Shown here: positions 7,396-38,500 of the stretch, piece after piece | Position numbering within the stretch: position 1 is the first letter of the stretch | Layout of the letters: every line of letters begins with the position of its first letter | Virus record (IMG/VR): IMGVR_UViG_3300008259_002461 | DNA from: a virus | Taxonomy: Duplodnaviria; Caudoviricetes | Length of the DNA stretch: 64,000 bases | Strand: one strand, 5' to 3' | Notes under the pieces: generated by a model | Told to the model about the DNA's origin: nothing | Database searches by the model: none | Seen by the model: the letters and a program-made list of their open reading frames with translations, nothing else | Made by a program: the position numbers and the translations under genes

Positions 7396-7420
7396 AAAAA
7401 AGGAGCCGAAGCTCCTTTTT
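7396..7420 (-). terminator. Rho-independent terminator with C(UUCG)G tetraloop, potentially bidirectional
   Basis: aaaaaggagc-ttcg-gctcctttttt on the minus strand after the tail tube gene. Confidence 0.88.
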
Positions 7421-7442
7421 GTAGTTAAAATCATAACTAGAT

Positions 7443-8069: not shown

Positions 8070-8092
8070 TTAACTTGCTCCTAATTCGTTAG

Positions 8093-8099
8093 TATTTAT
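8093..8099 (-). promoter_or_regulatory. Late promoter motif ATAAATA
   Basis: gATAAATAct 24 nt upstream of tube start, GGAG RBS between. Confidence 0.6.
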
Positions 8100-8103
8100 C
8101 ATA

Positions 8104-11463: not shown

Positions 11464-11499
11464 TCTGTATCTCCTGTTGGAATTGGTTTTTCTTGTATA

Positions 11500-11570
11500 T
11501 ATTTACCATAAAAGGTACAAAACAGGCTTTATAACAGTTCAAAAAAGGGGTGAAAAAGGTGAGGTAAATA
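11500..11570. promoter_or_regulatory. Divergent pair of TAAATA late-promoter motifs (11500-11505 minus, 11565-11570 plus)
   Basis: One faces the sheath gene, the other lies 4 nt before ATG 11575. Confidence 0.5.
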
Positions 11571-11574
11571 CACT

Positions 11575-11910
11575 ATGCGACCATTATGTCAATGCGGCCA
11601 ACGACCCGCAGCAATAAATTATAAAAAAGAAGGTAAAACCTTCTATAGAAAGAAATGCGAGGTATGTTTACGCCACGGAGTAAACCACGGTGTACCAAAA
11701 TGGAAACAGTCGGGCTATGAGAAAAAAAATTATTGTGAAAAATGCGGATTTAAAAGCAAGCACCTAGAACAGTTTAATGTTTTTCATGTAGACGGAAAGT
11801 TAGAAAACTGTCGTCCTAGCAATTTAAAAACAATATGTGCAAACTGTCAACGTGTGCTTCAAAAAGAAGGCGTTAAATGGAAGCAGGGCGACCTTCGACC
11901 AGACTTTTAG
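11575..11910 (+). CDS. Cys-rich HNH-like / zinc-finger protein
   Basis: CQC, CEVC, CEKC, CANC; VFHVDGKLENCRPSNLKTICANCQ matches HNH spacing. Confidence 0.7.
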   Translation: MRPLCQCGQRPAAINYKKEGKTFYRKKCEVCLRHGVNHGVPKWKQSGYEKKNYCEKCGFKSKHLEQFNVFHVDGKLENCRPSNLKTICANCQRVLQKEGVKWKQGDLRPDF

Positions 11911-21043: not shown

Positions 21044-21071
21044 ATCGTGTCCTTTACGTCAAACAAGCTGG

Positions 21072-21082
21072 TAAATATTTAT
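21072..21082. promoter_or_regulatory. Overlapping bidirectional late-promoter motifs TAAATATTTAT
   Basis: TAAATA on plus (21072-21077) before ATG 21083; ATAAATA on minus (21082-21076) before ATG 21043. Confidence 0.55.
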
Positions 21083-21832
21083 ATGATATTCAATAGCCCC
21101 GAAATAAAAATTAAATTTAAAACTTTTGATCCATTTGTTTTAAAAAATCTAGCACCACTATCTGCTCAAAAAAAATATCCTTCATGGTTTAAAGATACAC
21201 CACCATTTAGCGGCGGTGGCGCCATATCAACAAACTTTGAGCCTATTCTAGCTCCAACTATTCGACGATGTCCAGCAATAAATGATTATTTTTCAACTGG
21301 TGTAACTATACCTAACTGGACCGATTTAGAATTTTTTATTGACGGACCTAAAAAGTCAATGGAATGGCGTTACTCAAATAATTACACTTCTATGGAATTA
21401 GTACAGCCGCACGATTCTAGTCAGTTTCCGCAATTAGCAAACAAGTACCTTCATGCAAAAATTGTAAGTCCGTGGATAGCTGAATGTAATTCTGACATAA
21501 AATGGTTTTTAACTAAGCCTAGTTATTTTTCTGAGTTTGATGATCAGGATGTGTTGTTCTGTGACGGAGTTGTTCAATTTTACAACAACTTTGTAACTAA
21601 TGTAAACTTATTTTTTCCTATTAGAGATCAATCCTATACTGTGAAATTTTCAGCAGGTGAGCCTTTTCAGAAGTATATTCCGCTTACAGAAAAGACGGTA
21701 AATATTACTACTGAATATTGTACCCAAGAGTATTATGACCTCGCAGCACTAAAAGGAAGAAAAATTTCCTACCATCTGGGAAAACTATACAATATTTTTA
21801 AAAGAAATAACCGCAAGGAGAGAGAAAAATGA
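21083..21832 (+). CDS. Hypothetical phage protein; start revised to 21083 (MIFNSP)
   Basis: TIRRCPAINDYFSTGVTIPNWTD motif; first gene of the plus-strand enzyme operon. Confidence 0.7.
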   Translation: MIFNSPEIKIKFKTFDPFVLKNLAPLSAQKKYPSWFKDTPPFSGGGAISTNFEPILAPTIRRCPAINDYFSTGVTIPNWTDLEFFIDGPKKSMEWRYSNNYTSMELVQPHDSSQFPQLANKYLHAKIVSPWIAECNSDIKWFLTKPSYFSEFDDQDVLFCDGVVQFYNNFVTNVNLFFPIRDQSYTVKFSAGEPFQKYIPLTEKTVNITTEYCTQEYYDLAALKGRKISYHLGKLYNIFKRNNRKEREK

Positions 21833-22200
21833 GTACCACAAGAATAGTCAACGGCGTAGAATACACAATACCGCCAGGAACAGAACATATATGGACTGTG
21901 CCAGAAGAAGTAGTAGTAACTGCTCCTAGAGATGAAGTAACTGTAATTGATGCAATCAACGGTCTAAGAGTGCAGGCTATAGTTCGAAATCAAAATGAAG
22001 CAAGAATACTTGCGTTAACAGATCAATTAGCTAGTATTTGGCAAAACTTTGTAGACACTACAATTACCAAAGCTGAATTAACAACACAGGTTGGTAATTT
22101 TAGAAACACTGAACTAGAAAATACAGAAGGTGTTGATAATATAACTGTTCAATTTTTTGAAACAGTAATTCTTAAAATGTTAAGCGAAAGCAATCCATGA
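21829..22200 (+). CDS. Hypothetical small acidic protein
   Basis: 123 aa; ATGA overlaps with both neighbours. Confidence 0.7.
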   Translation: MSTTRIVNGVEYTIPPGTEHIWTVPEEVVVTAPRDEVTVIDAINGLRVQAIVRNQNEARILALTDQLASIWQNFVDTTITKAELTTQVGNFRNTELENTEGVDNITVQFFETVILKMLSESNP

Positions 22201-23795
22201 TAAAGCCAGTTAAAAAAATTATAATAGTAGGCGGCGGCAGCGCAGGTTGGATGAGTGCCGCTGCATTAATAAAAGCATATCCTGAAAAAGAGATTGTTGT
22301 AATTGAAAGTCCAAATGTTCCAATCGTAGGCGTAGGAGAAAGCACACTTGGCGGAATTAATGACTATTGTAAATTTTTAGAAATTGACGAAAAAGATTTC
22401 ATGACATTTACTGATGCAAGTTATAAAATGAGCATCAAGTTTACTGACTTTTACGAAAAAGATGCAGGTGGATTTCATTATCCGTTTGGAAGACCATTAA
22501 CACAAGGTACTATTAACGGAATGAATGATTGGCTCGTTAAAAAAGCACTATATCCAGATACTCCAATCGGTGATTATGTAAACTGCTTTTTTCCGGCCGC
22601 TGCTCTATGGGATCATAACAAGTTTGCGTTAAACAACTACGGACTTTTTGATAACTACGAACCAGACAATGATGTAGCATATCATTTTGATGCAACAAAA
22701 TTTGGTGCTTGGCTTAGAGAAAGATATTGCAAGCCTAGAGGTGTAAAACACATACCTACTACTGTAATAGATATTAAAGTAAACGAAAATGGTGTAGAAA
22801 AACTTGTACTTGAGTCAGGCGATGAAATTTCTGCTGATTTATATGTTGACTGTACTGGCTTCAAAAGTATTCTGTTAGCAGGCGCTCTAAAAGAAGAGTT
22901 TGTATCATATAGTAATATGTTGCCAAACAATAAAGCTATAGCAACTCGAATTCCATATAAAGATAAAGAAAAAGAATTAGAACCATTTACTAATAGTACA
23001 GCTATTGGCAATGGATGGGTATGGAATATTCCTAGTTGGGAACGCTTAGGTACAGGATATGTATATAGTGATAAATTTATTACTCCAAAAGATGCTAGAG
23101 AAGAATTTAAACAACATCTAATGAGCGATAAAATGGTAGTGCCTAGAACTAGAGAAGAAGTTGATGCTCTCGAGTTTAACGATATTAGTATGCGTGTTGG
23201 AATTCACAAAAGAACTTTTGTAAAAAATGTTGTTGCTATTGGATTATCTGCAGGATTTATTGAACCACTAGAATCAAATGGCTTGTATACTGTACACGAG
23301 TTTTTATTTAAATTAATTAAAACACTTGAGCGTCCAGCAATTACCCAATGGGATAAAGATGTATACAATGCAGCAACATTTGGTATGTGGAGAAATTTTG
23401 CACAATTTGTTGCAATGCACTACGCATTAAGTATCAGGGACGATACAGAATATTGGAAGGCTAATGCTAATCGAGTTTATTCTCCAGGCATGCCGTCATT
23501 AGAGCCAGAAACTGCTATAGGATTTTATAAACTTCAAGGCGCAAAAATGTTTGAGTACGGTCATGATTCAGACATAGCAGGAATTAATTGGATTAGTGTA
23601 GGAATGAATTATTTTGTTTCTGATAAGACAACTGTAACTCTTAGACAAAATTTAAGAAGAGAAAATTTTAGAATTACTTACGACCCTATTTTTAGAATGT
23701 GGGAAGAAAGAAAAGCTCGCTGGAATGAAAGTGCAAAAAATTACGGAAGTCTTTATCAATATTTAAAAGACAACATTCATAAAGGACAAGAATAA
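22197..23795 (+). CDS. Flavin-dependent halogenase 1 (tryptophan halogenase family)
   Basis: GGGSAG FAD motif, GVGEST, ASYKMSIKF (catalytic Lys position), WVWNIP, FIEPLESNG. Confidence 0.9.
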   Translation: MIKPVKKIIIVGGGSAGWMSAAALIKAYPEKEIVVIESPNVPIVGVGESTLGGINDYCKFLEIDEKDFMTFTDASYKMSIKFTDFYEKDAGGFHYPFGRPLTQGTINGMNDWLVKKALYPDTPIGDYVNCFFPAAALWDHNKFALNNYGLFDNYEPDNDVAYHFDATKFGAWLRERYCKPRGVKHIPTTVIDIKVNENGVEKLVLESGDEISADLYVDCTGFKSILLAGALKEEFVSYSNMLPNNKAIATRIPYKDKEKELEPFTNSTAIGNGWVWNIPSWERLGTGYVYSDKFITPKDAREEFKQHLMSDKMVVPRTREEVDALEFNDISMRVGIHKRTFVKNVVAIGLSAGFIEPLESNGLYTVHEFLFKLIKTLERPAITQWDKDVYNAATFGMWRNFAQFVAMHYALSIRDDTEYWKANANRVYSPGMPSLEPETAIGFYKLQGAKMFEYGHDSDIAGINWISVGMNYFVSDKTTVTLRQNLRRENFRITYDPIFRMWEERKARWNESAKNYGSLYQYLKDNIHKGQE

Positions 23796-23796
23796 T

Positions 23797-24429
23797 ATGT
23801 TGGTTAACAATATTTTTGCTGGAAGGCTTGAACCGTCAGCTACTGTAGGCGGGTGCATAGATATTTTTGAAAATGCTTGGCCTGAGCCAGAGTTAACTAT
23901 TGCAAGGATTGAACAAGAGTGTTCAAATATTAATTCAGGTGTTGGTTGGAGTAGAGCAGGAACCGTAGGTCAAGGGCATCGACAACAAGCTCGTACTAAT
24001 TTAGGGTTAGGTATTACCTTAGGCGGCGAATCTGTTGATAGTCAAACTATGAAAGACATACACAATCAAATGTATTTTCTTTTATTAGCATCTACAATTC
24101 CGTATACTGAACGATATGAAATGAATGAATACTTGTATCATGAACCGTACCAAGCATTAAAATATAGAGACGGTGAAGAATATAAAGCACATTACGACGG
24201 TGGAACTCAATCAGGTAGATGTATTAGTGCAGTCGTATATCTCAACGACGAATACGAAGGTGGACACATTGAGTTTCCTAATTTTAAAATTAAGATAAAA
24301 CCTCAAAAAGGTATGTTGATTTTATTTCCATCTAATTTTGCGTATAAACATGTTGCACATCCTGTAACACAAGGAACAAAATATAGTCTAGTTACTTGGA
24401 TTCACGATCGTCCAATTCAAGGAATGTAA
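23797..24429 (+). CDS. Fe(II)/2OG oxygenase, prolyl-4-hydroxylase-like
   Basis: HYD...SAVVYLNDEYEGG...PQKGMLILFPS...H...V..GTKYSLVTW. Confidence 0.88.
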   Translation: MLVNNIFAGRLEPSATVGGCIDIFENAWPEPELTIARIEQECSNINSGVGWSRAGTVGQGHRQQARTNLGLGITLGGESVDSQTMKDIHNQMYFLLLASTIPYTERYEMNEYLYHEPYQALKYRDGEEYKAHYDGGTQSGRCISAVVYLNDEYEGGHIEFPNFKIKIKPQKGMLILFPSNFAYKHVAHPVTQGTKYSLVTWIHDRPIQGM

Positions 24430-24431
24430 CA

Positions 24432-25079
24432 ATGACTAATGCGGATCTTTTTCAAAAAAATAAGTATGTGCAAGTTAATAATGTATTGTCGCCCGAGCTG
24501 ATCAATATAGCAACTACCTATGCGTTATTAGATGAAAGAAATGATCTATCATTAGAGGAAGGCGACTCTCCACAAATTCATAATTCGCATAGCAAGTATG
24601 CTGATACGTTAATAGAAGCTTTTTTATTGTATCTGCATCCTATGATGGAAGAAAATACAGGTCTTAAGTTACATCCAACCTATTCGTATTATAGAGTTTA
24701 CAAACCTGGCGCTGATTTAGTAAAACACATCGATCGTCCTAGTTGCGAAATTTCTACTACAGTTACCTTAGGTTTTGATTATAAGGGTGCTGATTACGAA
24801 TGGCCTATATTTGTTGGCGATGCTAGATGTGCTATGCAGCCAGGTGATCTTGTAATTTATAGAGGCTGTGAAGTAGAACATTGGCGCGAAGTATTTGATG
24901 CTCCGACTAATTCGTTTCATGTGCAATTTTTCTGTCATTATGTTGATGCTAACGGACCGTATGCAGATTTTAAGTTTGATAAAAGACCGTTTATTGGATA
25001 TGATAAAGAAGGTAAATTAAACAAAACTGTTTCCAAACATTATTTTCCAAACAAAAAATATTTGACATTTACAGGATAG
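24432..25079 (+). CDS. Fe(II)/2OG oxygenase (PKHD-type-like); start revised to 24432
   Basis: KHIDRPSCEISTT...WPIFV...PGDLVIYRGCEVEHWRE...FFCHYVD. Confidence 0.8.
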   Translation: MTNADLFQKNKYVQVNNVLSPELINIATTYALLDERNDLSLEEGDSPQIHNSHSKYADTLIEAFLLYLHPMMEENTGLKLHPTYSYYRVYKPGADLVKHIDRPSCEISTTVTLGFDYKGADYEWPIFVGDARCAMQPGDLVIYRGCEVEHWREVFDAPTNSFHVQFFCHYVDANGPYADFKFDKRPFIGYDKEGKLNKTVSKHYFPNKKYLTFTG

Positions 25080-25080
25080 T

Positions 25081-25644
25081 ATGATAGAAGTATTTGATAA
25101 TATTCTATCCGCCGAAGAGTGTGATCACATAGAGCAGTTTTTAAGAGATCCAAAATTTCCTTGGTTTTTATCTATAGGACACAATCATTGTACAACAGAT
25201 TTTGATAATATTAAAAAAAATTCAAACTCTTGGTCTGGTGAAGCACTGTTACTTACACATGTATTTTATCTTGATAAATTAAAAAATTCTGATAATTATC
25301 TATTGTCAGATTTTATATTAAATAGATTCTTAGATCGTTCTAAAATTCAATTTACAGAACTATTTAGATCTAAAGCAAATCTACAACCAGCATCGCATAA
25401 TGCTAATCAAATATATACAACTCCACACATTGATGGTAATAGTGACCATAAAGTCCTAATATATTATGCCAACAACTGCGACGGAGATACGTTTATTTTT
25501 AATGATCATGCTACAGGATCTATACTAAAACAAGTTACTCCTAAAAAGGGAAGATTTTTATTATTTGATGGAAATCTATATCACGCTGCTGGCTTTCCAA
25601 GCGAATCAAATTTTAGACTTAATGTAAATTTTAATTTAATATGA
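25081..25644 (+). CDS. Fe(II)/2OG oxygenase-like protein, paralog of 20471 and 27800
   Basis: PHID...LIYYANNCDGDT...FDGNLYHA...RLNVNFN. Confidence 0.8.
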   Translation: MIEVFDNILSAEECDHIEQFLRDPKFPWFLSIGHNHCTTDFDNIKKNSNSWSGEALLLTHVFYLDKLKNSDNYLLSDFILNRFLDRSKIQFTELFRSKANLQPASHNANQIYTTPHIDGNSDHKVLIYYANNCDGDTFIFNDHATGSILKQVTPKKGRFLLFDGNLYHAAGFPSESNFRLNVNFNLI

Positions 25645-26231
25645 TACACGGTAAAATAGAAGATTTTATTGGCATTTACGAAAATGCTGTTAGTGCAGAA
25701 CATTGCAATGCTATGATCAACTACTTTGAAAGTCTTAGAGACTATAATCTTGTTATTGATCAAGATCAATATACTACACAAGCTACTGTAAGAAAAGACG
25801 AATCAGTATTTTTATGCCACCCTGATGTAATAACATTGCCTAAAGGTTCACCTATTATTTTTCCGTTTGCAGACGCATTATGGAAATGCTACGAAGATTA
25901 TACTAAAGAGTTTGAAATGCTAAGAACTGCTGCCAAACACGGTTTTTATATGTTGCGTATACAGCGAACTGATAAAGGCGGAGGCTTTCATAATTGGCAT
26001 TTTGAAAATACTGGAAATGAAACATCAAATAGATTAGTCACATTTATGATGTATCTTAACGATGTAGAAGAAGGAGGTGAAACAGAATTCCTTTATCTCC
26101 ATAAAAGAATAAAACCTAAAGCAGGTACTATGCTAATATGGCCGTCTACCTATACACACACGCATCGAGGAAATCCTCCGCTAAGTGGAACAAAGTATAT
26201 TATAACAGGATGGTTAACATACTTTGAATAA
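25641..26231 (+). CDS. Fe(II)/2OG oxygenase, prolyl-4-hydroxylase-like
   Basis: WHFE...FMMYLNDVEEGGETEF...PKAGTMLIWP..YTHTHRGNPP...KYIITGW. Confidence 0.88.
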   Translation: MIHGKIEDFIGIYENAVSAEHCNAMINYFESLRDYNLVIDQDQYTTQATVRKDESVFLCHPDVITLPKGSPIIFPFADALWKCYEDYTKEFEMLRTAAKHGFYMLRIQRTDKGGGFHNWHFENTGNETSNRLVTFMMYLNDVEEGGETEFLYLHKRIKPKAGTMLIWPSTYTHTHRGNPPLSGTKYIITGWLTYFE

Positions 26232-26237
26232 GTTAAT

Positions 26238-27800
26238 ATGATTCATATAGATAAAAATTTTAAATTTGTAATTGTAGGCGGAGGTAGTGCTGGATGGATT
26301 TCTGCACTATTTGTTCGTGCAAACTTTCCTGATAGTCAGATCACTGTTATACAAAGTAGCGAAATAGGAATACTTGGAGCAGGTGAAGGTACTACTCCTC
26401 ATATTATAGATTTTTTAGATGAAATTGATGTTCCTGTAAGCAGACTAATCAAGGATGCAAAAGCAGTTTTAAAAAGCGGTATTAAATTTTCTAATTGGAA
26501 CGGTGATAGAAAATACTACTACCATTCGTTTATGGATAACCCAGAGTTGGATCATACTATATTCAGCGAATTAAAGCACACAAAGTTACCATTATTAGAT
26601 CTCGAAGTGATTGCTAACGGAGGATCATTAGATGACATAGGTTTTAATTCAGCAGCGTCTGATAGAAATTGTGTGAGATTTATTCCTAATCCATCTGCTA
26701 CTAACAAAGATTTAGATCCTATACTACACTTTACTAGATTAGGAAGAACTGCGCTTCATTTTGATGCTAACTTACTAGCATCGTGTCTTGAAAATATAGG
26801 CAGGTCAAGAGGCATTAATGTCATAGACGGCATTGTTACAAACTTTACTACTACAGACAGTGGACATATTACATCAGTTAATATTGATTCAAAAAAGATT
26901 GAATGCGATTTTGTGTTTGATTGTTCGGGCTTTAAGAGATTAGCCATTGGTAATTTGTATAAAACGCCATGGAAAAGTTACAAAGAGTATTTGCCTGCAA
27001 AGCGAGCAATGCCATTCTTTATTCCAAATAACTCACAAATAATTCCTCCTTACACAGATTCAACCGCTATGAAATGGGGATGGATGTGGAAAATTCCAGT
27101 TCAAGGCAGATTTGGTTGCGGATATGTTTATGATAGCGATAGAGTTTCTGATGAAGATGCCAAAGCAGAACTAGATCAAGAAATAGGTATTGAGGTTGAA
27201 GTGCCTAGGATATTAAACTTTGAACCAGGTAGATTTGAAAAAATATATGAAAAGAATTGTTTAGCTATTGGACTAAGTTCGGGCTTTATAGAACCGTTAG
27301 AGGCTACCTCTATATGGACGTCATTGATGATGCTGAATGCATGGATAGAAAATCCGGCGGCCATAACACATAACGATCAGACTGCTAGAGATAAAGTTAA
27401 TCAACGGCATTGTGACATGAACGATAACACTCTAGGATTTGTTTATTTTCATTATATCACAAAAAGGGATGACACTACGTTTTGGAGTAATTTCACTAAA
27501 GACAATAAGATTCCAGCATCGTTGCATAAGTTATTAGAAGAATCAAAACACACAATACCTAGTTATGATATGTTTTCTAACATAGGTCTAGACTGGGCTG
27601 CAAAGAGCTTTTTAGCATGCGGTAATGGACAAAAGTTTTTTAATCCTGATCATGCTAAAAAAATATTTGATGCTTACTATAATGGTAAAAGAAAAGACGA
27701 TTATGATCTATTAAAGTATCAGTACTTTAGAAATATTAATTTAAATTTAACAACATTAATAGATCACTATTCTTTTATAGAATATATGAGAAATAATTAA
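26238..27800 (+). CDS. Flavin-dependent halogenase 2 (tryptophan halogenase family)
   Basis: GGGSAG, GAGEGT, AVLKSGIKF, WMWKIP, FIEPLEATS. Confidence 0.9.
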   Translation: MIHIDKNFKFVIVGGGSAGWISALFVRANFPDSQITVIQSSEIGILGAGEGTTPHIIDFLDEIDVPVSRLIKDAKAVLKSGIKFSNWNGDRKYYYHSFMDNPELDHTIFSELKHTKLPLLDLEVIANGGSLDDIGFNSAASDRNCVRFIPNPSATNKDLDPILHFTRLGRTALHFDANLLASCLENIGRSRGINVIDGIVTNFTTTDSGHITSVNIDSKKIECDFVFDCSGFKRLAIGNLYKTPWKSYKEYLPAKRAMPFFIPNNSQIIPPYTDSTAMKWGWMWKIPVQGRFGCGYVYDSDRVSDEDAKAELDQEIGIEVEVPRILNFEPGRFEKIYEKNCLAIGLSSGFIEPLEATSIWTSLMMLNAWIENPAAITHNDQTARDKVNQRHCDMNDNTLGFVYFHYITKRDDTTFWSNFTKDNKIPASLHKLLEESKHTIPSYDMFSNIGLDWAAKSFLACGNGQKFFNPDHAKKIFDAYYNGKRKDDYDLLKYQYFRNINLNLTTLIDHYSFIEYMRNN

Positions 27801-28387
27801 TGATTGTAAATAACGTTCTTTCTACTAACGATTATAACAACTTATACAATCTAGTATCGGGCGTAAACTTCCCGTGGTATTATCAACCTGATATAGCATT
27901 TAGAGGGTTTGATGAGCCTGTGCAAGATCCACGTATGTTTCCTAGTCATGGTTTTACTCATGTAGTATGGGATTGTGATCAAGGAAAAGTATCAGATGTT
28001 TTGCAATTTGTAGCACCAATTATTGAAAGTTTTCAAAAACAACTTGGTGTTAAAATTAATAATTTTTTAAGAATAAAAATAAATTTACAAACACCAATTA
28101 TTGGATATACTAACGATCACTATAATGGCCCGCATATTGATAGATTTGATCCGCACAAAACACTCATCTATTATCTTAATGACAGTGACGGTGATACTTT
28201 CATTTTTAATAAAGAATACAATCCTAACGATAAATCAACTTGGCATCCAGTTAGTCCGGATATTAAAGAAAGAGTTACTCCAATTGCAAATTCTTTATAT
28301 TTTTTAGAAAACGGATTCACTTATCATTCAGGAAGCAATCCAGTTAATAGTCCAAGAAGAATCACAATTAATATCAATTACAACTAA
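27800..28387 (+). CDS. Fe(II)/2OG oxygenase-like protein, paralog of 20471 and 25081
   Basis: PHID...LIYYLNDSDGDT...YHSGSNP...RITININ. Confidence 0.8.
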   Translation: MIVNNVLSTNDYNNLYNLVSGVNFPWYYQPDIAFRGFDEPVQDPRMFPSHGFTHVVWDCDQGKVSDVLQFVAPIIESFQKQLGVKINNFLRIKINLQTPIIGYTNDHYNGPHIDRFDPHKTLIYYLNDSDGDTFIFNKEYNPNDKSTWHPVSPDIKERVTPIANSLYFLENGFTYHSGSNPVNSPRRITININYN

Positions 28388-28977
28388 TGGCAAATTTAAT
28401 AATAGATAGATGGTTTTCAAATCCGGTATGGGAAACTGATCTAAATTTAAACAATGACGAACTTATAGCATATGCTTACGAGCTAAAATCAAAGAAAGAC
28501 GGAATACATAAATCTAATAGAGAAGGGTGGCAATGTTCTGATATTGAAAATCCACCTAACTCTTATTTAAATTTAATAGAATCAATAAACAACACGCTGG
28601 TCGATGTGCATCGATCAATGGGATTAAAAATAGAATATCCATCATATGTTAAAGGCAGTTGGATTAATATTAATCCATATGGCAGTTACAATCTTAGACA
28701 CCTGCATCCAAGAAGTTTATTCAGTGGAGTATATTATCCTAAAGTTCCAGAAGGCGAATGTGGTGATTTAATTTTTTATAGAGATCATGTAATGCTCAGT
28801 TACTTACCAAATCATATTGTAGAAAATTGGAATGATATGACTAGTGGAACAACTGTATATAAAGCAAGGACAGGAATGCTTTTAATTTTTCCTAGTTGGT
28901 TAGAACATTCTGTTACTACTAACCTTACTAGTGAAGATAGGATTTCAATAAGTTTTAATACTAACTACGACTATTAA
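28387..28977 (+). CDS. Putative Fe(II)/2OG oxygenase (TIGR02466-like)
   Basis: WININ...RHLHP...SGVYY...LLIFPSWLEHSV..N...RISISFN. Confidence 0.82.
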   Translation: MANLIIDRWFSNPVWETDLNLNNDELIAYAYELKSKKDGIHKSNREGWQCSDIENPPNSYLNLIESINNTLVDVHRSMGLKIEYPSYVKGSWININPYGSYNLRHLHPRSLFSGVYYPKVPEGECGDLIFYRDHVMLSYLPNHIVENWNDMTSGTTVYKARTGMLLIFPSWLEHSVTTNLTSEDRISISFNTNYDY

Positions 28978-29378
28978 ATAGACGTTTTTCCTCTAGTCAG
29001 CACACCGTAGTTTTTATCGTTAAATTTGTCCATAAATCTAAAGTGTGCATCTTTAGAATATGGAATTTTTAATTCGTCTATTCTTTCTAATACTTGAGGT
29101 TGTACGAATCTTCCATAGAACGCTTCTAGATCTTCACCCCAGTTATGTCGTATGATATAATATTCTGCATAAGGGCACCAAGCTGCATATACTGCTGTGC
29201 CGCCGCCTCGTTCTATGATAACTTCCCATATTTCAACATCTTCGATTTCCATAATCCTGTCGTAGCTCCAATCAGGACTAGGTGGTAAAACTATTTTATC
29301 TGAGTCCATGTTATTATCATTCCACACTTCGTCATTAAAATCTTCAAAAATATTCTTAGTTGTCTTAAACTGAGGCAT
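28974..29378 (-). CDS. Hypothetical acidic, Trp-containing protein
   Basis: 134-aa ORF coupled to the upstream 69-aa ORF. Confidence 0.7.
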   Translation of the reverse strand: MPQFKTTKNIFEDFNDEVWNDNNMDSDKIVLPPSPDWSYDRIMEIEDVEIWEVIIERGGGTAVYAAWCPYAEYYIIRHNWGEDLEAFYGRFVQPQVLERIDELKIPYSKDAHFRFMDKFNDKNYGVLTRGKTSI

Positions 29379-29574
29379 TATCTGTTAGATCCTTTATCGA
29401 TAAATTAAGTTTTTTCCAGCTATGTTTTCCTTCGGTAGCATGCCCAGTATAAAGTTCTCCAGTTTCTTGATCAATTAAGATCCATTTCTCTGGACACTTA
29501 GTTACTACTGTAAGTGTTATTGCAGATTCTAATTCTGCAACTTTTTTACTGTTTTTTAATTTTCTTACCTTCAT
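29365..29574 (-). CDS. Hypothetical small protein
   Basis: 69-aa ORF with AGGTA RBS, starting 9 nt after halogenase 3 stop. Confidence 0.65.
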   Translation of the reverse strand: MKVRKLKNSKKVAELESAITLTVVTKCPEKWILIDQETGELYTGHATEGKHSWKKLNLSIKDLTDNASV

Positions 29575-29583
29575 TACAGATAC

Positions 29584-31011
29584 CTATTGATAATTTGTAG
29601 TAATATGTTTTAGAAAGTCTGTTTCAGCAATGTGATACATGTTAGATTCTATTAGATCTTTGTGCGCCGATTCAGGATTAAGTAAGTCAAGTCCTGCCAT
29701 ACTCCAATTCCATAAGCCAATTGCAGGTGCACCAAAATTATTAGCTATTTCAAAATAACTTACTAACTTATTTTTTGATCGAGTAATAATATTATCAGCG
29801 AACGGACTAACAATATTGTTTTCTTTTATATGGCGCCAGAATGGAGTATCTGCTCTAGTGCCTTGGTAGTGCATAGAAACAAAGTCTAGATTAAGATCAT
29901 AAAAATGTGCAGTTCGCGTGTTATATGAATCTTGATTTTCTATTAGGTTTGTAGTTTTAAGATCACTTGATAAGAAGTCATTAATAAACAATAGTAGTTG
30001 AGCAATAGTAGTATGGATACTTGTAGCTTGTAGCGGTTCAACAAAACAACTTGCTAGTCCTAAGGACAATACATTTTTTTCCCAGAACTTTTCTGATCTG
30101 CCTGGGTCAAAATTTATTATCTTAATAGGAGTAATTTCTCTTCCAAGTAACTGCTCCACTTCAAGTTTAGCATCTTCTGCTGATATAAAATTATTGTTGT
30201 AAACATAACCGCATCCTCGTCGAGTTTGTAAAGGTATGTCCCACATCCAACCAGATGACAGTGCCGTAGCATCAGTCCAAGGTTTTATTTTATCATTTTG
30301 AGTATAGTCTAAAAGAAATGGCATTGCAGTATTGCAGGGCAAATACTTACTGTAGGACTTCCATCCTACATTTAATTTTTTCATTAGAATTTTATTAAAG
30401 CCGCTGCAATCAATAAAAAATTCTGATTCAATTTTTCTACCATCATCTAGAACTACTGATTGTATATGTCCGTTTTGAGGATCAAGCACACAGTCTTTAA
30501 CTATAGCGTCAATGTGTGTGATGTTATCTTTTATGCAGCGTTCTTTAAAAAACTTTCCAACTTTGTGTGCATTAAAATGAAACGCATTAAACACATTGTA
30601 GTTTCTTTCTACTTCGTAGTCTAGACCTATTTTAGAAGCGATATGAGCTTTGTCTTTACCAAACTTGTGCAGTACATATTTAAACACATGATCATTCATT
30701 CTACCAGCTGAAGGACTGCCGTCTAGGGGTGTAAAAAATGAAGTATTATCACCTAACCAATTATTAAATTTAATACCAATTTTGTTAGTTGCATCACAGT
30801 AGTCTACAAACTCTTGTAGATTAATGTCAGTTTTGAAATATCTTCCAGCTAAGAGATCAGTGAAGAATCCTGTAGATCCTTCTCCGGCACCAATAATGCC
30901 AATTTCACTTGATTCAATTACTGTAATTTTGTGTATGTTTGGCTGCGACTTACTTATACAATAAGCCGCTAGCCAACCGGCTGTGCCGCCGCCAACGATT
31001 GTTATATTCAT
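29584..31011 (-). CDS. Flavin-dependent halogenase 3 (tryptophan halogenase family)
   Basis: GGGTAG, GAGEGST, ATNKIGIKF, WMWDIP, FVEPLQATS. Confidence 0.9.
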   Translation of the reverse strand: MNITIVGGGTAGWLAAYCISKSQPNIHKITVIESSEIGIIGAGEGSTGFFTDLLAGRYFKTDINLQEFVDYCDATNKIGIKFNNWLGDNTSFFTPLDGSPSAGRMNDHVFKYVLHKFGKDKAHIASKIGLDYEVERNYNVFNAFHFNAHKVGKFFKERCIKDNITHIDAIVKDCVLDPQNGHIQSVVLDDGRKIESEFFIDCSGFNKILMKKLNVGWKSYSKYLPCNTAMPFLLDYTQNDKIKPWTDATALSSGWMWDIPLQTRRGCGYVYNNNFISAEDAKLEVEQLLGREITPIKIINFDPGRSEKFWEKNVLSLGLASCFVEPLQATSIHTTIAQLLLFINDFLSSDLKTTNLIENQDSYNTRTAHFYDLNLDFVSMHYQGTRADTPFWRHIKENNIVSPFADNIITRSKNKLVSYFEIANNFGAPAIGLWNWSMAGLDLLNPESAHKDLIESNMYHIAETDFLKHITTNYQ

Positions 31012-31056
31012 ACTTTAATTTATGCTGCATGTTAGATCAAATCTAACAAAAGTGAA

Positions 31057-32253
31057 TTAAGTATTTCTGTATCGAATTACAACGACTCCAGGGCCGCCGT
31101 CACCACTTTGTGTGTTACTCCAATATCCGCCACCACCGCCTGCACCTGAATTTGTAGCGCCTGATTGTCCTGCAACTGAGCCTGTTCCGCCCTCACCTCC
31201 ACCAAACGCATTTAAACTTCCACCGTGAGCGCCTGCAAGTCCGTAATGACCGTAGTTACCTGGGGCGTGTGTACCTGCGCCACCACCGCCAGCATATCGA
31301 GTAAGAGTTCCTGTTACTTGACTTGCTAGGCCAGCACCACCTGTGCCCATTTCGTTACCACTGCTTGTTGGTTTACCAGACGATCCAGCACCGCCTCCAC
31401 CACCACCGCAGTGAATGGTAGTAGAACCTGCTGCCCAGCCAAAGCCGCCACCGTGAGCACCAAAGCCGCCAGGGTGACCTTGACCTGCTATACCGCTGCC
31501 ATATCCATTGCCTTCCATGGAAATATGATCGTTATTGTTTCCTGTAGGCGTACCTTGAAGTGTAGCATTTGGCATTCCTGCTAACCAAGGATGGTTAGTT
31601 CCTTGATTTCCGTGACCGCCGGGCGCTTGTGGCCACCAACCGCCCTCACCTCCTGCTCCTGGTGTGTGTCCGCCAGGGCCACCGCCACCACTACCACCGT
31701 TATTCAATCGTATTACTGAATGTCCAGAAGTATATGAACTACCTCTACCGCCGCCGATAGCATTGTACTGCTGAGGTATTCCTGCTCCTACTACACTAGA
31801 AGGATTTCCTGGGTTTTGATTGTTAGCATTATGCTGTGTTTCTCTTGAGCCGCCTGCGCCTACGTTAATGGTATAGTTGCCTGCGGGCAAACTGGCCTGC
31901 GATTCATATATCATTCCGCCTGCGCCACCACCACCACCAATTTGTGCACCACCACCACCACCGGCAACCATTAGTACTTCTACCTGTCCTGGATATGTCA
32001 TAGTAAAGGTTGTAGATCCACTGGTAAATGTGTGTATTCTATATCCACCTGTGGTACTAAGTGTACCGCCAGAACCTAGTGCAGATCCTTCGAGGGTTAC
32101 CCAAACAGTTCCGTTGTATACTTCATTTCTTGCGTTATCGGTATTGTATCGAATCATTCCAGCACTTGGAGTGACTGGACGTTGTGCAGTTGTTCCACTA
32201 GGAAGTTGAATAAATCCACTATCGTTTACTGTTACATTTTTTAACGTTGCCAT
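31057..32253 (-). CDS. Glycine-rich virion protein, paralog 3
   Basis: MATLKN.TVND.GFI start, GYRIHTFTSG, poly-Gly motifs, C-terminal GGPGVVVIRY. Confidence 0.75.
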   Translation of the reverse strand: MATLKNVTVNDSGFIQLPSGTTAQRPVTPSAGMIRYNTDNARNEVYNGTVWVTLEGSALGSGGTLSTTGGYRIHTFTSGSTTFTMTYPGQVEVLMVAGGGGGAQIGGGGGAGGMIYESQASLPAGNYTINVGAGGSRETQHNANNQNPGNPSSVVGAGIPQQYNAIGGGRGSSYTSGHSVIRLNNGGSGGGGPGGHTPGAGGEGGWWPQAPGGHGNQGTNHPWLAGMPNATLQGTPTGNNNDHISMEGNGYGSGIAGQGHPGGFGAHGGGFGWAAGSTTIHCGGGGGGAGSSGKPTSSGNEMGTGGAGLASQVTGTLTRYAGGGGAGTHAPGNYGHYGLAGAHGGSLNAFGGGEGGTGSVAGQSGATNSGAGGGGGYWSNTQSGDGGPGVVVIRYRNT

Positions 32254-32256
32254 TTA

Positions 32257-33285
32257 TTATATCCTATATTTCACAATAACCACACCCGGGCCGCCCAAGC
32301 CTGCTGGATTTTCGCCGCCTGGGTGAGCACCACCTCCACCTCCACCACCTCGGTTAGTTCCACCAGCTGTAGCTACTGCGCCGCCGTGTGTACCTGAATT
32401 TCCTGTGCCGTCGCCGGCACCACCTGGATCTGGACTATGGCCGTAGGCAGGATTAACGTGTGTTCCGCCAGCACCGCCAGCTGCATAAATTACTGCTGAG
32501 CCGCCTATTGCATTTGTAATTCCCTGTCCGCCGTGACAGCGAACCCAATTAGAATATCTGCTAGTACCCGGATTTGGATATCCTGGGCCAGTGCCGTGGT
32601 GACCGTATCCGCCTGGATGTCCTTGTCCTATTACGCCTGTACCGCCTGGATGTTCACCGGGATAGCTGGTATATACTGTACCTGGAGTTCCGTTTCCGCC
32701 TGGACCGCCGCCACCTGAACCACCGCTCATTGCAGGAATTGTACTGCCTGCACTATATTGGCCACCTTTGCCGCCGCCCACTGCTTCGATGTTTGCATTT
32801 GGTCCAACAAAACTTGATGGACCGCCGGATGTTCCTTCATCTGAATAGTGATGGAATCCGCCTGCGCCACCGCCACCTCTATTAATTGTATAATTCTGTC
32901 CACCTATGACCGATACTGCTGATTCATAAACGTATCCGCCTGCACCGCCTCCGCCGCCGATTGGAGCGCCACCACCGCCACCACCTACTACCAATACTTC
33001 TGCTCTACCTGTATAAGGAGCACTAAAAGTACCACTGCTAGTAAATGTATGAATTCTATAGCCGCCTGCTGTTGTAATAGTACCGCCGGTTGCTATTGTG
33101 GTTCCTGAACCTGCACTTATTGACCCGTCTGCTGTTTTCCAAACTCCGTTAACATACTGTTCAACTTCGTTAGTAGTAGTGTTAAATCTAAAATCACCGT
33201 TGGTATTGGTTCTTGCAGCAGTATTACCTACGGCTGCTTGTATAAATCCAGTGTCGTTTACTGTTAAATTCTTTAGCGTTGCCAT
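32257..33285 (-). CDS. Glycine-rich virion protein, paralog 2
   Basis: Same N-terminus, GYRIHTFTS, poly-Gly motifs, GGPGVVIVKY. Confidence 0.75.
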   Translation of the reverse strand: MATLKNLTVNDTGFIQAAVGNTAARTNTNGDFRFNTTTNEVEQYVNGVWKTADGSISAGSGTTIATGGTITTAGGYRIHTFTSSGTFSAPYTGRAEVLVVGGGGGGAPIGGGGGAGGYVYESAVSVIGGQNYTINRGGGGAGGFHHYSDEGTSGGPSSFVGPNANIEAVGGGKGGQYSAGSTIPAMSGGSGGGGPGGNGTPGTVYTSYPGEHPGGTGVIGQGHPGGYGHHGTGPGYPNPGTSRYSNWVRCHGGQGITNAIGGSAVIYAAGGAGGTHVNPAYGHSPDPGGAGDGTGNSGTHGGAVATAGGTNRGGGGGGGAHPGGENPAGLGGPGVVIVKYRI

Positions 33286-33287
33286 TC

Positions 33288-34313
33288 TTAACCTCGATAT
33301 CTTACAATAACCACGCCTGGACCACCTGGGCCGCCGCCTTGTGGTTCTGGTGAATATGGACCACCACCACCACCACCACCTAAGTTAGTGCCGCCAGCTT
33401 GACCGTTTTGACCCGGAAGTGTATTTCCTAAACTGCCTCTACCTGCAAGAGTTGATACTCCGTGACCTGGGCTGTGATAGCCGCCGCCACCACCGCCTGC
33501 TCTCCAAACTACACCGCCGCCAATGTTTGATGCCATGCCTTCACCGCCACGACCTTGTTGATTACGATTTGAGCGTCCGTAGCCCATTGAGCCTGCGCCA
33601 CCGCCTCCACCACCACCATAGTGTGTACCTGTAGGAGTTCCGTTATAATGAGCACCTACGCCACCTGGGTGTCCTTGTCCTGCTGTTCCAGCTGCTCCAG
33701 CATGTATAGTTTCTGGACCACCATTCCATCCTGGGCCACCACCACCTGATCCACCGCCACTAGTTGGTTGACTACCTGGGGGATAATGACATCCTCGGCC
33801 ACCGCCTGTTGCTACAATTGATACTGGAGTACCGCCGCCAAATGTGCTAGGATTACCTGAAGTACCATCATTTGCACTATGACTTGAACAGCCATTGCCA
33901 CCTGTTCCAACAACTGCGGGATACGCAGTTCCAGCAACTACAGGAACTCCGCTAACATAGATATAGCCGCCTGCGCCGCCTCCACCTGAAATACTGTGGC
34001 CTCCGCCACCGCCTGCAATTGTTAGTACTTCTACAACACCGTCTTTGGTTGGTGTAAATTGTTGTGTTCCAGAAGTAAATGTGTGAATTCTATATCCTGC
34101 TGCGGTAGTGATTGCTCCGCCTGTACTAGCATTACCTACTGTTGACTCTTCTACACGTACCCAAGCACTACCATTCCAATATTCATTAGATGCAATATCT
34201 GTATTGTATCTTATCATACCAACCGTTGGACTACCTGGTCGCTGTGCGTTTGTTCCGCTAGGAAGTCTGATAAACCCAGTATCGTTTACAGTAAGATTTT
34301 TTAATGTTGCCAT
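33288..34313 (-). CDS. Glycine-rich virion protein, paralog 1
   Basis: Same N-terminus, GYRIHTFTSG, poly-Gly motifs, GGPGVVIVRY; TAATG coupling to upstream fibre. Confidence 0.75.
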   Translation of the reverse strand: MATLKNLTVNDTGFIRLPSGTNAQRPGSPTVGMIRYNTDIASNEYWNGSAWVRVEESTVGNASTGGAITTAAGYRIHTFTSGTQQFTPTKDGVVEVLTIAGGGGGHSISGGGGAGGYIYVSGVPVVAGTAYPAVVGTGGNGCSSHSANDGTSGNPSTFGGGTPVSIVATGGGRGCHYPPGSQPTSGGGSGGGGPGWNGGPETIHAGAAGTAGQGHPGGVGAHYNGTPTGTHYGGGGGGGAGSMGYGRSNRNQQGRGGEGMASNIGGGVVWRAGGGGGGYHSPGHGVSTLAGRGSLGNTLPGQNGQAGGTNLGGGGGGGPYSPEPQGGGPGGPGVVIVRYRG

Positions 34314-35167
34314 TACTTAGCTGCCCTTAATTCATTAATTTCTTGTTTTAAAGTTTTAATAGATTCAATTAGATAAGCTGTTAATTTAGTATATTTAATA
34401 CCTATAGTGTTACCTAGGTCATCTTTAGTAACTAAGTCTGGTAACACTTCATCTGTCCATTCAGCAATCAACCCTGCTTCGTGTTCTTTATTATCAATAC
34501 GATCGTAAGTTACGCCACTTAGTTTTAAAATGCTGTCTAGTGCATTCTCAATTGGCAAAATATTTTCTTTTAATGTTATACTAGAAGTTTCAACAATGCC
34601 TGCCGCAGTTAATTGACCACCAACACCTACTCCACCTGTAACTACTAATGCTCCGTTTGTAACAGCATTTGATACTGTACTTGCTGTTACACGCATCTCT
34701 GTTGAACTCAATACTCCTGTACTTGGCACAAAAGTTAGTTTAGTACTGCTTACAGATACTGTTGACACTGTTCCTGTAGTAGCAGTAGTAATTGCTGGAT
34801 AATATACTGCTGTGTCAGCTGCTTGGTTAGCCACACTAACGAATGGAGCAACCCAACTCAAATCTCCGCTTGCGTTACTTCTTAATACTGTATTATCAAC
34901 GGCTGCGGCTGGAAACGTATAAGTTACGTTAGCACTAACAGTTGCGGGTGCCCTAAGTGCTACAAAATTGCTAGAGTCAGCATCGGCTAATCTTAAACTA
35001 TTTTGAGCATTAATCTGCATAGAACTAACAGACTGCACAATGCCAGAGCCATTTGGTTCTAACAATACATTAGCATTAGACACTACAGATTGAATACTAT
35101 TATTAACGGTAGTTAGGCTACCTAGCACTGCTCGACCTACTTTACCTGATGTGATTTTTCTAGACAT
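34313..35167 (-). CDS. Tail fibre protein with C-terminal intramolecular chaperone (peptidase S74-like)
   Basis: SSITLKENI...GLIAE...IKYTKLTAYLIESIKTL + coiled coil; Ser-x4-Lys dyad spacing kept. Confidence 0.82.
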   Translation of the reverse strand: MSRKITSGKVGRAVLGSLTTVNNSIQSVVSNANVLLEPNGSGIVQSVSSMQINAQNSLRLADADSSNFVALRAPATVSANVTYTFPAAAVDNTVLRSNASGDLSWVAPFVSVANQAADTAVYYPAITTATTGTVSTVSVSSTKLTFVPSTGVLSSTEMRVTASTVSNAVTNGALVVTGGVGVGGQLTAAGIVETSSITLKENILPIENALDSILKLSGVTYDRIDNKEHEAGLIAEWTDEVLPDLVTKDDLGNTIGIKYTKLTAYLIESIKTLKQEINELRAAK

Positions 35168-35186
35168 AATCTATTTCCTTGGATTT

Positions 35187-35507
35187 TTATACTGTTGATG
35201 TTTCTATTCCGTAGACAACAACATCAGTGTTTGCTTGCGTTGAATAGGCATAAATTGTCCTACCATTTTGTATTACAACACCGCCACGTTCTAATACTCC
35301 ACCTGGTAAAACTTCTGCATTATATTCAATGTAGTTACCTGGTGCTGGTATATTAGGATTAACTGCTAATGCTATTCGCACATTAATTGCTGTTGCATTT
35401 TTATTACAAATGCTTATAGTTACCACACTAAATGTATCTGCGGGCGGGCCGTATATACTTGTGTAGGTTGTTGCTGCCAGGGCAGCATTTGCTAAAATTC
35501 CGTTCAT
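35187..35507 (-). CDS. Small beta-rich protein, paralog of 48602-48931 and 61085-61441
   Basis: SICNK...V.I...YIEY...LPGG...DVVVYGIE pattern. Confidence 0.7.
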   Translation of the reverse strand: MNGILANAALAATTYTSIYGPPADTFSVVTISICNKNATAINVRIALAVNPNIPAPGNYIEYNAEVLPGGVLERGGVVIQNGRTIYAYSTQANTDVVVYGIETSTV

Positions 35508-35523
35508 GTTATTTGTTCTCCAA

Positions 35524-38500
35524 TTATCTTAAGAAATAGTTATATGCTAGAGGTAATCCTAAAACTGTGCCGTTAAACACTACATTACCTTTTATATTTA
35601 TCGGAGCGCCGCTTACAGTTGTAATTGTATTGGCACCAACAAATATGTCACCTGCTGTTACTGAGTTTACATTCAATGAAGCGCCGCCGCCACCGATCTG
35701 TGCTTCAATGTACGCTTTAACAGCTCGTTGAGTTGGCACAATATTATCTGAGTTAGCAGTAAAGAATGGATCTGTACTAAATTCAGTAATACTTGCTGAG
35801 TTACCACCTAGTGTAACTTCACCTAAACTTAACTCTTGTAGTCCTGCAATATTAAATGCATCAGCATTAAGTGTTGCAACACCTGTACTCTGCTCAATAC
35901 TAAACAAATCGCCAACTCGGAAATTACCGTCTTGGTCAGTAGCTGTGAAGAATACTCGTCCACCATTTGAATCAACTGTTTCGTTAGCTTGAATAGGTTG
36001 TTGTAAAGGAGTGTTTGGATAATTTGTAGTATTAAATCCGCCAGTACCAATATCTAAGAAATCGTGACCAGTTAATCGAACTTGCGAGAATCTAATACGT
36101 AGTTCTACTGCTTCGTTGTTAGCTAATCGAGTACCTACTGGAATAGCAGGACTTACTTGTAAAAATCCTGTGTACGATCCTGGACTAGTTCCTAAGAAAC
36201 TAACAGTATTAACTAATTTAAAGAACTGTCCAGGTAAACTATCAAACACTATGTTTGATCCTGATACTGGCTGCTGTGTTAGTCTCTTCACAGCAATAAA
36301 TGTACCGTCCTGTATAAAGTCTGCACTACCGTTAGAATTTTGACTATCAATTTCTGCACTTGCAGTAATGAACCCAGTTCCTCTGTTAACAAATGTAGGA
36401 TTAGCTATTGCTCCGCTATTTAATCTTGCTTCTACTACTACATCGTCAATATTGTTAGGATCAGTGACTGTAATAGTTGGTGCACCGCTGGTATAGCCAG
36501 AGCCTGGTTCAATTAGTCGTATTTCAAATATCTGTTCGTTACTAACGCCAGCTCTACCTCGAGCTCTAGCTCCAATTCTTGCATCAAGGCCTGCTGTTGT
36601 AGTACCTGAACCAATTAGTACAAATTTGCCCGTTCTAGCTGGATTACCAAATGCTACAGCAAAATATCCTGTGTTTGGTAAGCTGGTAACTGCTGTCCAT
36701 ACAATTCCATCTTCTGAATGGTATAATGCTGTTGTTGTAGTTGTTACAACAAATACACCTTGTCCGTATGCAATGTTGTTTGTAGTTATGCTTCCTGCAA
36801 TAGTTACAGCACTACTCCAAGTAATACCATCTAAACTGTATGAGCAAGTGCCGTCACTAGCTAGAGCAACAAATCTACCATTACCCCAAGTAATATCATT
36901 CCAAGTTTTGTTTGGTAGTCCTGAACCTGCTGTCCAAGCAATGCCGTCAGTGCTATATACACTATTAGTAGTACCGCTCTTAATAGCTACAAACAATCCC
37001 TTTCCGTATGCAATAGGAAGATATCCAAGTGCTGGTAGAGCATTTGTTGTTAATGACCAGGTTGCGCCGCCGTTGTCTGAATATGCTACATCTCTGTAAC
37101 CTTCTGCGATTACAACAAATCTACCAATGTTGCTTGTAACTTGTCCAAATGCAACATTTGTTTGATAGCCAGCACCCGTTGGTATTGTACTAGTGCTCCA
37201 TACATCACCGTCATTTGAATATGCTGCTGTTGTACCTGCTGTAACAATCACAACACTTTGTTTAAATGTACTTGATCCATCGTTAATTAGTCCGCTAGCA
37301 ATATTTTTGTATGAACTAGCACTAGCAGGTAATACCTCTGCACTCCAAGTTACACCATCTATACTCTTTTGAGCACCAGTACCGCTGTTAGGTATTGCAA
37401 GGAATAAACCTTTTCGTGCAAGACCTGTAAAGTCGTAGTTGACTACTGCTCCTGTTACACTATTGATACTAGTAATAATTACTGTAATATCGTTGGCAGG
37501 GCTTGCGCCACCAACAGATGTGCCTGCAATAGTAATTGTATTACCTCTAACATAATTAGATCCTGCACTGTTAGTTGTTAGGTAGTATCTTTCGCCGTTA
37601 CGTGTAATGTTGAAAGTTAATCCTGTACCGGCGCCGCCTGTAGTTGTAACGGCTGTATATTGTGCAGAAGTTTCAAAATAATGCGCATTTGCATAATTAC
37701 TACTGCTAATAGTTGTAGCTGTTGTTGTCTTAGGAGGAGCTGTAAAAGAAATAGCTGGTTCAATCAAATAAGTTGACGAACTGTTAGGTGCTACAATGGT
37801 TGTGCCTGGAATAACATGATCCCATCCAGCTGCACCGTTACTTTCTCTTATTACCTCTGCTTCTTTAGAACCAGCATCGTAAGTGCTTATTATACCATAG
37901 TTACCAATACCTGCGCCGCCTATGATATACACTTTCATTCCAACATAAGCTGTACTTAAAGCACCATCAGTTGCTGATAAAAATACACTAGTTGTTGTTC
38001 CGCTCTGTGCAACGTTACTTACTCGAACATAGCCACTTCCACCTAGCGGTGCAGGTGTAGCTGGCGGAATAACTGTTTCTAAATCAACTTTAACATTTAT
38101 AACAGCATTGTCGCGGAACTCGTCAGCTACAACTACATCCCCAGTTCCAGCACCAAAAATATCAATTACAGCTTCAGTATAATCGTTACCTGCATGGTTA
38201 AATTCAAATCCTAGTAGCTGATTGTTATCAGTGAATACATTGCTAATTGTAGCACTATATTGGGTTTGATTATCAACTACTGCTGTTACAGGAGTTTCGT
38301 CAGGGTCAACACCTTCTGCTACAGATCCAAAGTCACCGTAGGAGTTGTTGCCGTTGGTTGCACGAATTCTGCCACCAGTTTCTGCTAGGTAGCCAATATG
38401 AGAGTAGTATGTAAATACAGATACAAGTTCTGCTCTACCGTTATTAGTAATCCATGCACCAATACCGTCTGAAATAACCTGAGTAAAGTCGTTGGATGTT

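Follow-up and report, generated by a model that had tools for sequence, protein, structure and literature searches.

In this work we report that one type of phage flavin-dependent halogenase usually accompanies genes for glycine-rich (Gly-rich) tail-fibre proteins, while the prolyl 4-hydroxylase (P4H)-like type of oxygenase does not. The DNA concerned is a stretch of 64,000 nucleotides (IMGVR_UViG_3300008259_002461; the window, below) of an uncultured T4-like myovirus, whose parent viral sequence has about 215 kb and a guanine plus cytosine (GC) content of about 0.36. Three back-to-back open reading frames (ORFs) of 398, 342, and 341 aa fill positions 31057-34313 on the minus strand, and their products (paralogues A, B, and C) all pass the Pfam family PF21722 (Gly_rich_2), with 47.6, 50.7, and 53.7 bits against a gathering score of 24.3. 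Next to them lies an island of halogenases and iron/2-oxoglutarate (Fe/2OG) oxygenases. Enzymes of both classes are numerous in marine and freshwater T4-like phages, and an array of them was described in phage Syn9 in 2010. The original prediction had proposed the Gly-rich proteins as the most plausible substrates of this cluster; the part of it that finds support is the genetic coupling, which extends beyond this phage and points mainly to the halogenases, and the part that does not is the reasoning from X-Pro-Gly to prolyl hydroxylation.

The survey on which this is based comprised 80 IMG/VR loci centred on relatives of the halogenase at 22197 (49-72% identity, 45 clusters at 70%), which were scanned with an iterated glycine-rich-domain profile; this profile also recovers the proteins of Syn9, S-RIM44, HTVC008M, and Pam3. 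A Gly-rich gene was detected in 36 of the 80 loci, and in 12 of the 14 that had nearly full 10-kb flanks. The gap between this gene and the nearest enzyme gene did not exceed 1.7 kb in 35 of the 36 loci, with a median of about 430 bp. When the same procedure was applied as a control to loci centred on P4H-like genes, a Gly-rich gene was present in 13/80 and in 0/6 with full flanks, and the difference between both ways of centring was significant (Fisher P = 1.3e-4 for 36/80 vs 13/80 and 7e-4 for 12/14 vs 0/6). Starting from the Gly-rich genes, island-type enzymes were seen in about 6 of the 23 loci listed (a mixed set, with many members matching the N-terminal motif only), and many Gly-rich fibre genes have no adjacent enzymes. 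The gene orders vary: the halogenases may stand between Gly-rich genes (loci L063, L082, and L107) or follow the convergent order of the window. Locus L063 is peculiar in that its halogenase lies between Gly-rich genes on one strand (4082-11581) with no oxygenase detected in 21 kb, and the two Gly-rich proteins upstream of this halogenase are very rich in His (13 and 19 residues).

No cultured phage is close to the window at the DNA level (megablast of 29000-36000 versus the phage collection gave zero matches), and the same coupling is found in cultured phages at the level of protein families. Syn9 gp38 and gp39 are PF21722 proteins located one gene upstream of the halogenases gp41/gp42 and the dioxygenase array, which Iyer et al. 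(2010) described and did not connect to the Gly-rich genes (PMC2938197); gp38 and gp39 have no mention in an experimental-evolution paper that cites Syn9 (PMC6224464). HTVC008M has a PF21722 gene two genes away from a block of five oxygenase genes. The S-RIM44 isolate Np_42_0711 shows, in order up to the neck gene gp13, three PF21722 genes, a gene of 153 aa, two halogenase genes, and no fewer than five genes of oxygenase type (2OG_5, DUF6445, 2OG_5, 2OG_3, and JmjC). Five 197-kb records contain this block of 12.7 kb, which lies upstream of gp13 and also takes in the last part of a giant fibre gene; megablast did not match it in Syn1 or in those S-RIM44 isolates that have 193 kb. Comparison, within a single phage genus, of the S-RIM44 locus (L043, KX349294 96000-114000) with that of Syn1 (L044, GU071105 84000-106000) revealed flanking neck genes which are 98.6% identical, the site of the block being occupied in Syn1 by a 294-aa protein (phrog_2415), a 121-aa gene, and one PF13759 oxygenase. 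The S-RIM44/Syn1 genomes have either both the fibre-tip genes and the enzyme array or neither of them. The cassette of Syn9 and S-RIM44 is probably shared by descent. The distances between halogenase and PF21722 genes in four genomes gave a rough combined probability of 0.002, with the genomes treated as independent. A weak PF21722 match of P-SSM2 is situated 11 kb from the nearest oxygenase. Given the conserved coupling in Syn9, S-RIM44, HTVC008M, and the 36 of 80 loci, we take the fibre tips as the leading candidate for a substrate of the island.

Two features of these cultured genomes were noted in passing. Syn9 gp39 (L009 13150-14328) has two partial PF21722 matches in one frame of 407 aa and a third piece in another frame, and in translation it shows an unusual stretch rich in Cys and Leu; it has the appearance of a Gly-rich gene that was duplicated or frameshifted. 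In addition, HTVC008M (L006 11415-13374) has a dioxygenase and a halogenase between its small and large terminase genes, where P-SSM2 (L125 5166-6623) has a weak PF21722-like gene.

The three paralogues of the window, A (P0001, 31057..32253, 398 aa; PF21722 E = 2.7e-12), B (P0002, 32257..33285, 342 aa; E = 3.1e-13), and C (P0003, 33288..34313, 341 aa; E = 3.9e-14, and phrog_2295 with E = 1e-54), all on the minus strand, can be aligned with identities of 49-56%, the first 60 residues being almost identical and A having an additional loop insertion of about 35 aa. Structure prediction covered paralogue C only. The AlphaFold2 (AF2) model, built on 93 homologues, reached a predicted local distance difference test (pLDDT) of 91.9 and a predicted template modelling score (pTM) of 0.85, and its structural comparison was exhaustive. 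Two matches stand well above the rest, namely, the fibre protein gp24 of cyanophage Pam3 (7ypx_A; Z 14.2, root-mean-square deviation 3.0 Å over 182 residues, 28% identity) and a tail-tip chain of Bxb1 (9d93_Qa; Z 13.4). The glycine-rich domains of ALK/LTK come next (Z 7-8); they share the rare packing of extended glycine strands as a ligand-binding surface and differ in that identity is about 16% over some 125 aligned residues. The N-terminal 40 residues resemble short stretches of other phage fibre proteins (CBA120 TSP3, Z 5.4). Sequence searches of the Gly-rich proteins versus solved structures gave nothing useful, and both Pam3 and Bxb1 were obtained from the fold search only. With a Gly-rich protein as query, tblastn matches the N-terminal 50 aa only, because the low-complexity filter masks the rest, so it was unusable for a genome-wide profile.

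Pam3 gp24 has been described as a TNF-like sandwich with strands continuing into twelve extended glycine-rich motifs, which build a hydrogen-bonded lattice that has a central GGGGxGG motif and whose variable distal loop tips were proposed as receptor-binding (PMC9608196); a later paper classes such domains as polyproline-II-type bundles (PMC13243192). The receptor-binding adhesin gp38 of Salmonella phage S16 has the same packed glycine-strand architecture according to the comparison in PMC9608196, and it was not among the structural matches of the paralogue C model. The window proteins share with Pam3 gp24 (PDB 7YPX/7YFW) the TNF-like sandwich, the lattice, the GGGGxGG-type motifs, the location in the fibre module, and a C-terminal strand that ends in V/I-V/I-x-Y. 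In contrast, gp24 begins with a long alpha-helical bundle, whereas the N-terminus of the window proteins is a short, beta-rich docking region of a kind that recurs in many phage fibre proteins, and Pam3 has one gene where the window has three tandem paralogues and no recognisable homologue of the gp25 chaperone. No oxygenase or halogenase is annotated in Pam3, unlike the window, which has both next door; since Pam3 builds the same fold without annotated enzymes, the fold does not generally require them.

From their family, their fold, and their position in the fibre operon we consider it probable, by a modest degree, that the three proteins are tail-fibre tips of the known fold, TNF-like plus glycine-rich lattice. 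Paralogue C is laid out as a conserved N-terminal docking region of about 60 aa, a TNF-like sandwich, and the lattice. The simplest reading is that of three interchangeable fibre tips on a shared docking region: the three genes would supply alternative distal tips, that is, receptor-binding adhesins, of one tail fibre of a T4-like jumbo myovirus, the near-identical N-terminal 60 aa or so probably docking each tip to the common shaft, and the variable loop ends of the lattice would contact the host.

The original prediction had rested on the Pro-Gly content, estimated by eye at about 8-10 dipeptides per protein. The exact counts in paralogues A, B, and C are 8, 10, and 8, including GPG, HPG, NPG, TPG, and APG, so the estimate was accurate. 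Its meaning is another matter. Gly amounts to 28.4, 29.2, and 30.2% and Pro to 4.8, 5.6, and 6.5% of these proteins, and shuffled versions of them yield 5.4, 5.6, and 6.6 Pro-Gly (P = 0.14, 0.02, and 0.32), a slight excess, and no clear departure from chance. Among the 93 homologues, Gly follows Pro in 38% of cases within the glycine-rich domains, versus a Gly frequency of 32%. The count can thus be attributed mostly to the Gly content of about 30%. Collagen-type Gly-X-Y repeats were absent from all the window ORFs, the longest G-x-x run having 4-5 triplets. Within the close family, conservation is limited to three Pro-Gly sites, GGGGPGG (Pro 80%), GQG[H/F]PGG (97%), and GGPGVV (62%). Together with the glycine runs they would be building elements of the lattice, the remaining dipeptides being a by-product of 30% glycine; the Pro of GGGGPGG-type motifs may sit in extended strands, where this residue is well tolerated. 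Syn9 has other residues in place of GGGGPGG and GQGHPGG, as have HTVC008M and Pam3 in part. Among Gly-rich homologues adjacent to enzymes the count goes from 0 to 20 with a mode of 3, and five have none; Syn9 gp38 has 2 and gp39 has 0, though both lie beside the archetypal array. The density of Pro-Gly was 1.49 per 100 aa with a P4H-like gene versus 1.18 without it, which is not significant (P = 0.07). Pro-Gly content is therefore largely compositional or structural. As to the other residues of which the proteins had been said to have many, the description is partly right: His is mildly enriched (2.9-3.5%) and Tyr is at 3.5-4.7%, while Trp is not enriched (0.6-1.5%) and the sole invariant one, W51, is in the N-terminal docking region. 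Six His columns (77, 145, 215, 222, 280, and 320 of paralogue C) are conserved in 72-89% of the 93 homologues; metal binding by them, as on the axes of other fibres, is a possibility.

These data bear directly on the proposal that the P4H-like enzymes at 23797 and 25641 hydroxylate the Pro of X-Pro-Gly before or during folding and that the halogenases act on Trp, Tyr, or His of the Gly-rich proteins. The enzymes do resemble bacterial and viral prolyl 4-hydroxylases, the Pro of two motifs is well kept as described above, the island neighbours the Gly-rich genes in this lineage, and a Gly-rich gene is directly followed by oxygenase genes on the same strand in five loci (L142, L163, L165, L183, and L200). 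The backbone of the window proteins, extended and rich in glycine with Pro-Gly, is also reminiscent of collagen-type substrates, such as those of the Bacillus anthracis P4H; it differs from them in lacking Gly-X-Y periodicity and in forming a lattice on a TNF-like domain, not a triple helix. Against the proposal stand a Pro-Gly number close to that given by composition, which falls to none in some enzyme-linked homologues such as Syn9 gp39, the lack of a significant association between Pro-Gly density and P4H-like genes, the scarcity of Gly-rich genes in P4H-centred contigs, and the Pam3 fold without annotated enzyme. Moreover, 473 phage records have P4H-like genes, whose surroundings also include replication and metabolic regions; they are often far from fibre genes and occur in genomes without PF21722 too. 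In the window itself, the two genes are 4.8-7.3 kb from the Gly-rich genes and on the opposite strand, and the enzyme directly abutting them is the halogenase P0005. X-Pro-Gly is a weak ground for predicting a prolyl hydroxylase substrate here, and we regard this proposal as quite improbable.

A different explanation is that the island acts on a small molecule, a peptide, or a host component and travels with the fibre genes by sharing an exchangeable late-gene cassette. We hold it to be possible, if rather doubtful. Secondary-metabolite synthesis was proposed for the Syn9 array by Iyer et al. (2010) (PMC2938197), the difference between S-RIM44 and Syn1 amounts to a single block swap, P-SSM2 and HTVC008M have many dioxygenases dispersed over their genomes, halogenases and oxygenases also occur in genomes without PF21722 genes, and VirX1 is among the closest solved relatives of P0005. 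VirX1 is a viral halogenase that accepts many small substrates in vitro. On the other hand, Pfam scans of the cluster genes revealed no nonribosomal peptide synthetase, polyketide synthase, or transporter family. The linkage also survives several gene orders, including halogenases between Gly-rich genes, and it is asymmetric, in that halogenases of this type mostly have a Gly-rich gene as a neighbour while the mixed set of Gly-centred loci has the enzymes in a minority of cases, which fits an enzyme dependent on the fibre.

Our own reading, that at least one island enzyme modifies the fibre tips and that the halogenases are the best-linked candidates, is tentative and we place it somewhat below an even chance. 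Its more specific form, in which the halogenases and some of the oxygenases would be tailoring enzymes that halogenate or hydroxylate loop residues of the tips and so create a chemically modified receptor-binding surface, is a possibility that we find rather unlikely as yet. Several observations weigh against modification of the tips. S-PM2, S-SCSM2R, S-H38, and Syn1 have halogenases with no PF21722 gene over the cut-off, and the three of them searched for PF13640 have 7-11 matches each. In P-SSM2 and HTVC008M there are 14 PF13759 matches each scattered over the genome, so most such oxygenases must have other targets; P-SSM2 also has 9 PF13640 matches, and these scattered oxygenases span structural, replication, and metabolic regions, making up an unusually large phage enzyme family. 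The 80 loci of the halogenase survey represent the nearest relatives of a single halogenase subfamily and do not count as independent, and the linkage might stem from inherited synteny or from a shared place in a host-range cassette. Trimer formation and receptor binding of the fibre tips would follow by analogy with Pam3 gp24 only.

With respect to the significance of the coupling, the finding that genes for glycine-lattice fibre tips nearly always adjoin one halogenase type makes what was a vague guess open to experiment in cultured phages, such as Syn9 or S-RIM44 isolates that have or lack the cassette, and the comparative data move the attention away from Pro-Gly and prolyl hydroxylation. 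If true, the tailoring of fibre tips would give VirX1-type viral halogenases a class of natural substrate and would constitute halogenation of a virion protein in a phage. The Pro-Gly test and the halogenase-versus-P4H control are new here.

Regarding the enzymes, P0005 (29584..31011, minus strand; PF04820, E = 4.4e-93) is the flavin-dependent halogenase that adjoins paralogue A, on the same strand and after a gap of 45 nt, upstream of a 134-aa gene. Its best solved relatives are 6frl (E = 4.5e-56) and, further down, the viral VirX1 (6qgm, E = 1.9e-47). It retains the flavin motif GGGTAGW, the aligned Lys (ATNKIGIKF), and the WxWxIP motif (GWMWDIPL). The convergent enzyme island occupies 21047..28977 on the plus strand according to Pfam and PHROG scans, and relatives have the same gene set. 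It includes two halogenases detected in the Pfam scan (22197-23795 and 26238-27800), oxygenase-type genes at 25081, 27800, and 28387 with PF13759 or weak matches, a "ferrochelatase-like" gene of phrog_2954 at 24396, and genes without assigned family at 21047 and 21829. The two remaining genes, at 23797..24429 (PF13640, E = 3.8e-18, 66.7 bits for a cut-off of 27) and 25641..26231 (PF13640, E = 1.1e-16, 62 bits, same cut-off), are predicted to encode P4H-like Fe/2OG oxygenases, as had been originally assigned, their closest solved relatives being prolyl 4-hydroxylases. The former is related to the P4H of B. anthracis (3itq, E = 4.8e-9), PBCV-1, and Chlamydomonas and to PHD2, and the best solved relative of the latter is again the B. 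anthracis enzyme (3itq, E = 9.9e-10); the structures matched by the two were 3itq/5hv0, 5c5t, and 2jig. When the 25641 product is aligned with B. anthracis P4H, both the distal His and the Lys that binds 2OG are matched, while in the first metal motif, FHNWHFE, a Trp is found at the expected Asp and an HxE reading needs a shift of 3 residues, so the alignment is ambiguous there. In total, 21047-31011 contains three PF04820 genes, five genes matching PF13640 or PF13759 (two of them below the Pfam cut-off), and one phrog_2954 gene. Tandem halogenases with several unrelated Fe/2OG-type genes, which characterise a Syn9-type block, are thus present. The Syn9 region gp38-gp54 has the same enzyme families, with PF21722 genes, a small gene, two halogenases, and many Fe/2OG and JmjC-type genes. 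It differs in having all genes on one strand, whereas the main island of the window converges on the fibre operon and one halogenase is inside it, and in that its Gly-rich proteins are almost devoid of Pro-Gly.

The Gly-rich genes are preceded by P0004 (34313..35167, minus strand), a fibre protein with a C-terminal S74-type intramolecular chaperone domain (PF13884, E = 6.6e-11, and tail-fibre PHROGs), the stop codon of which overlaps the start of paralogue C; the relatives L001, L003, and L004 have a counterpart at the equivalent position. Before it lies a conserved fibre-module protein of 106 aa, P0126 (35187..35507, minus strand; phrog_11338 "tail fiber protein", E = 1.9e-7), represented by a gene of 106-107 aa at the corresponding position of relatives and by local matches in more loci. 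Farther upstream on the same strand there are four ORFs of 1708-2256 aa, taken to be fibre genes, the nearest of which (35524-42294) corresponds to CBM_5_12-bearing genes of relatives. In relatives, too, the Gly-rich genes come after the S74-chaperone fibre gene and the giant fibre genes. The local GC content rises to 0.44-0.51 at the Gly-rich genes, and the simplest explanation is their Gly codons.

Downstream of the Gly-rich genes, the same strand carries the halogenase, a 69-aa ORF, and the conserved 134-aa gene P0127 (28974..29378, minus strand), which closes the fibre operon and is 60-85% identical to the genes of 136-142 aa at the same position in L001, L003, and L004. No PHROG match and no likeness to the Pam3 gp25 chaperone were detected for P0127; from its position it is possibly a fibre chaperone. 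The complex prediction of P0127 with the Gly-rich domain (residues 60-341) had a score of 0.00, which gives no verdict. Compared with its relatives of 142 aa, P0127 deviates in the final 10-20 residues and stops sooner, which may reflect a frame change near the 3′ end.

Concerning transcription, a consensus scan of the window for promoters and terminators gave results at background level, and the gap that separates the halogenase from paralogue A has no terminator-like site on the minus strand. A single copy of the T4 late-promoter word TATAAATA is present in the window, versus about 10.6 expected from shuffles; the word is depleted and uninformative on timing. The 45-nt gap (31012-31056, minus strand) contains a 7-bp inverted repeat, GTTAGAT..ATCTAAC, and the word CATAAATTA immediately before the start codon, which together may represent an attenuator plus an internal late-type promoter.

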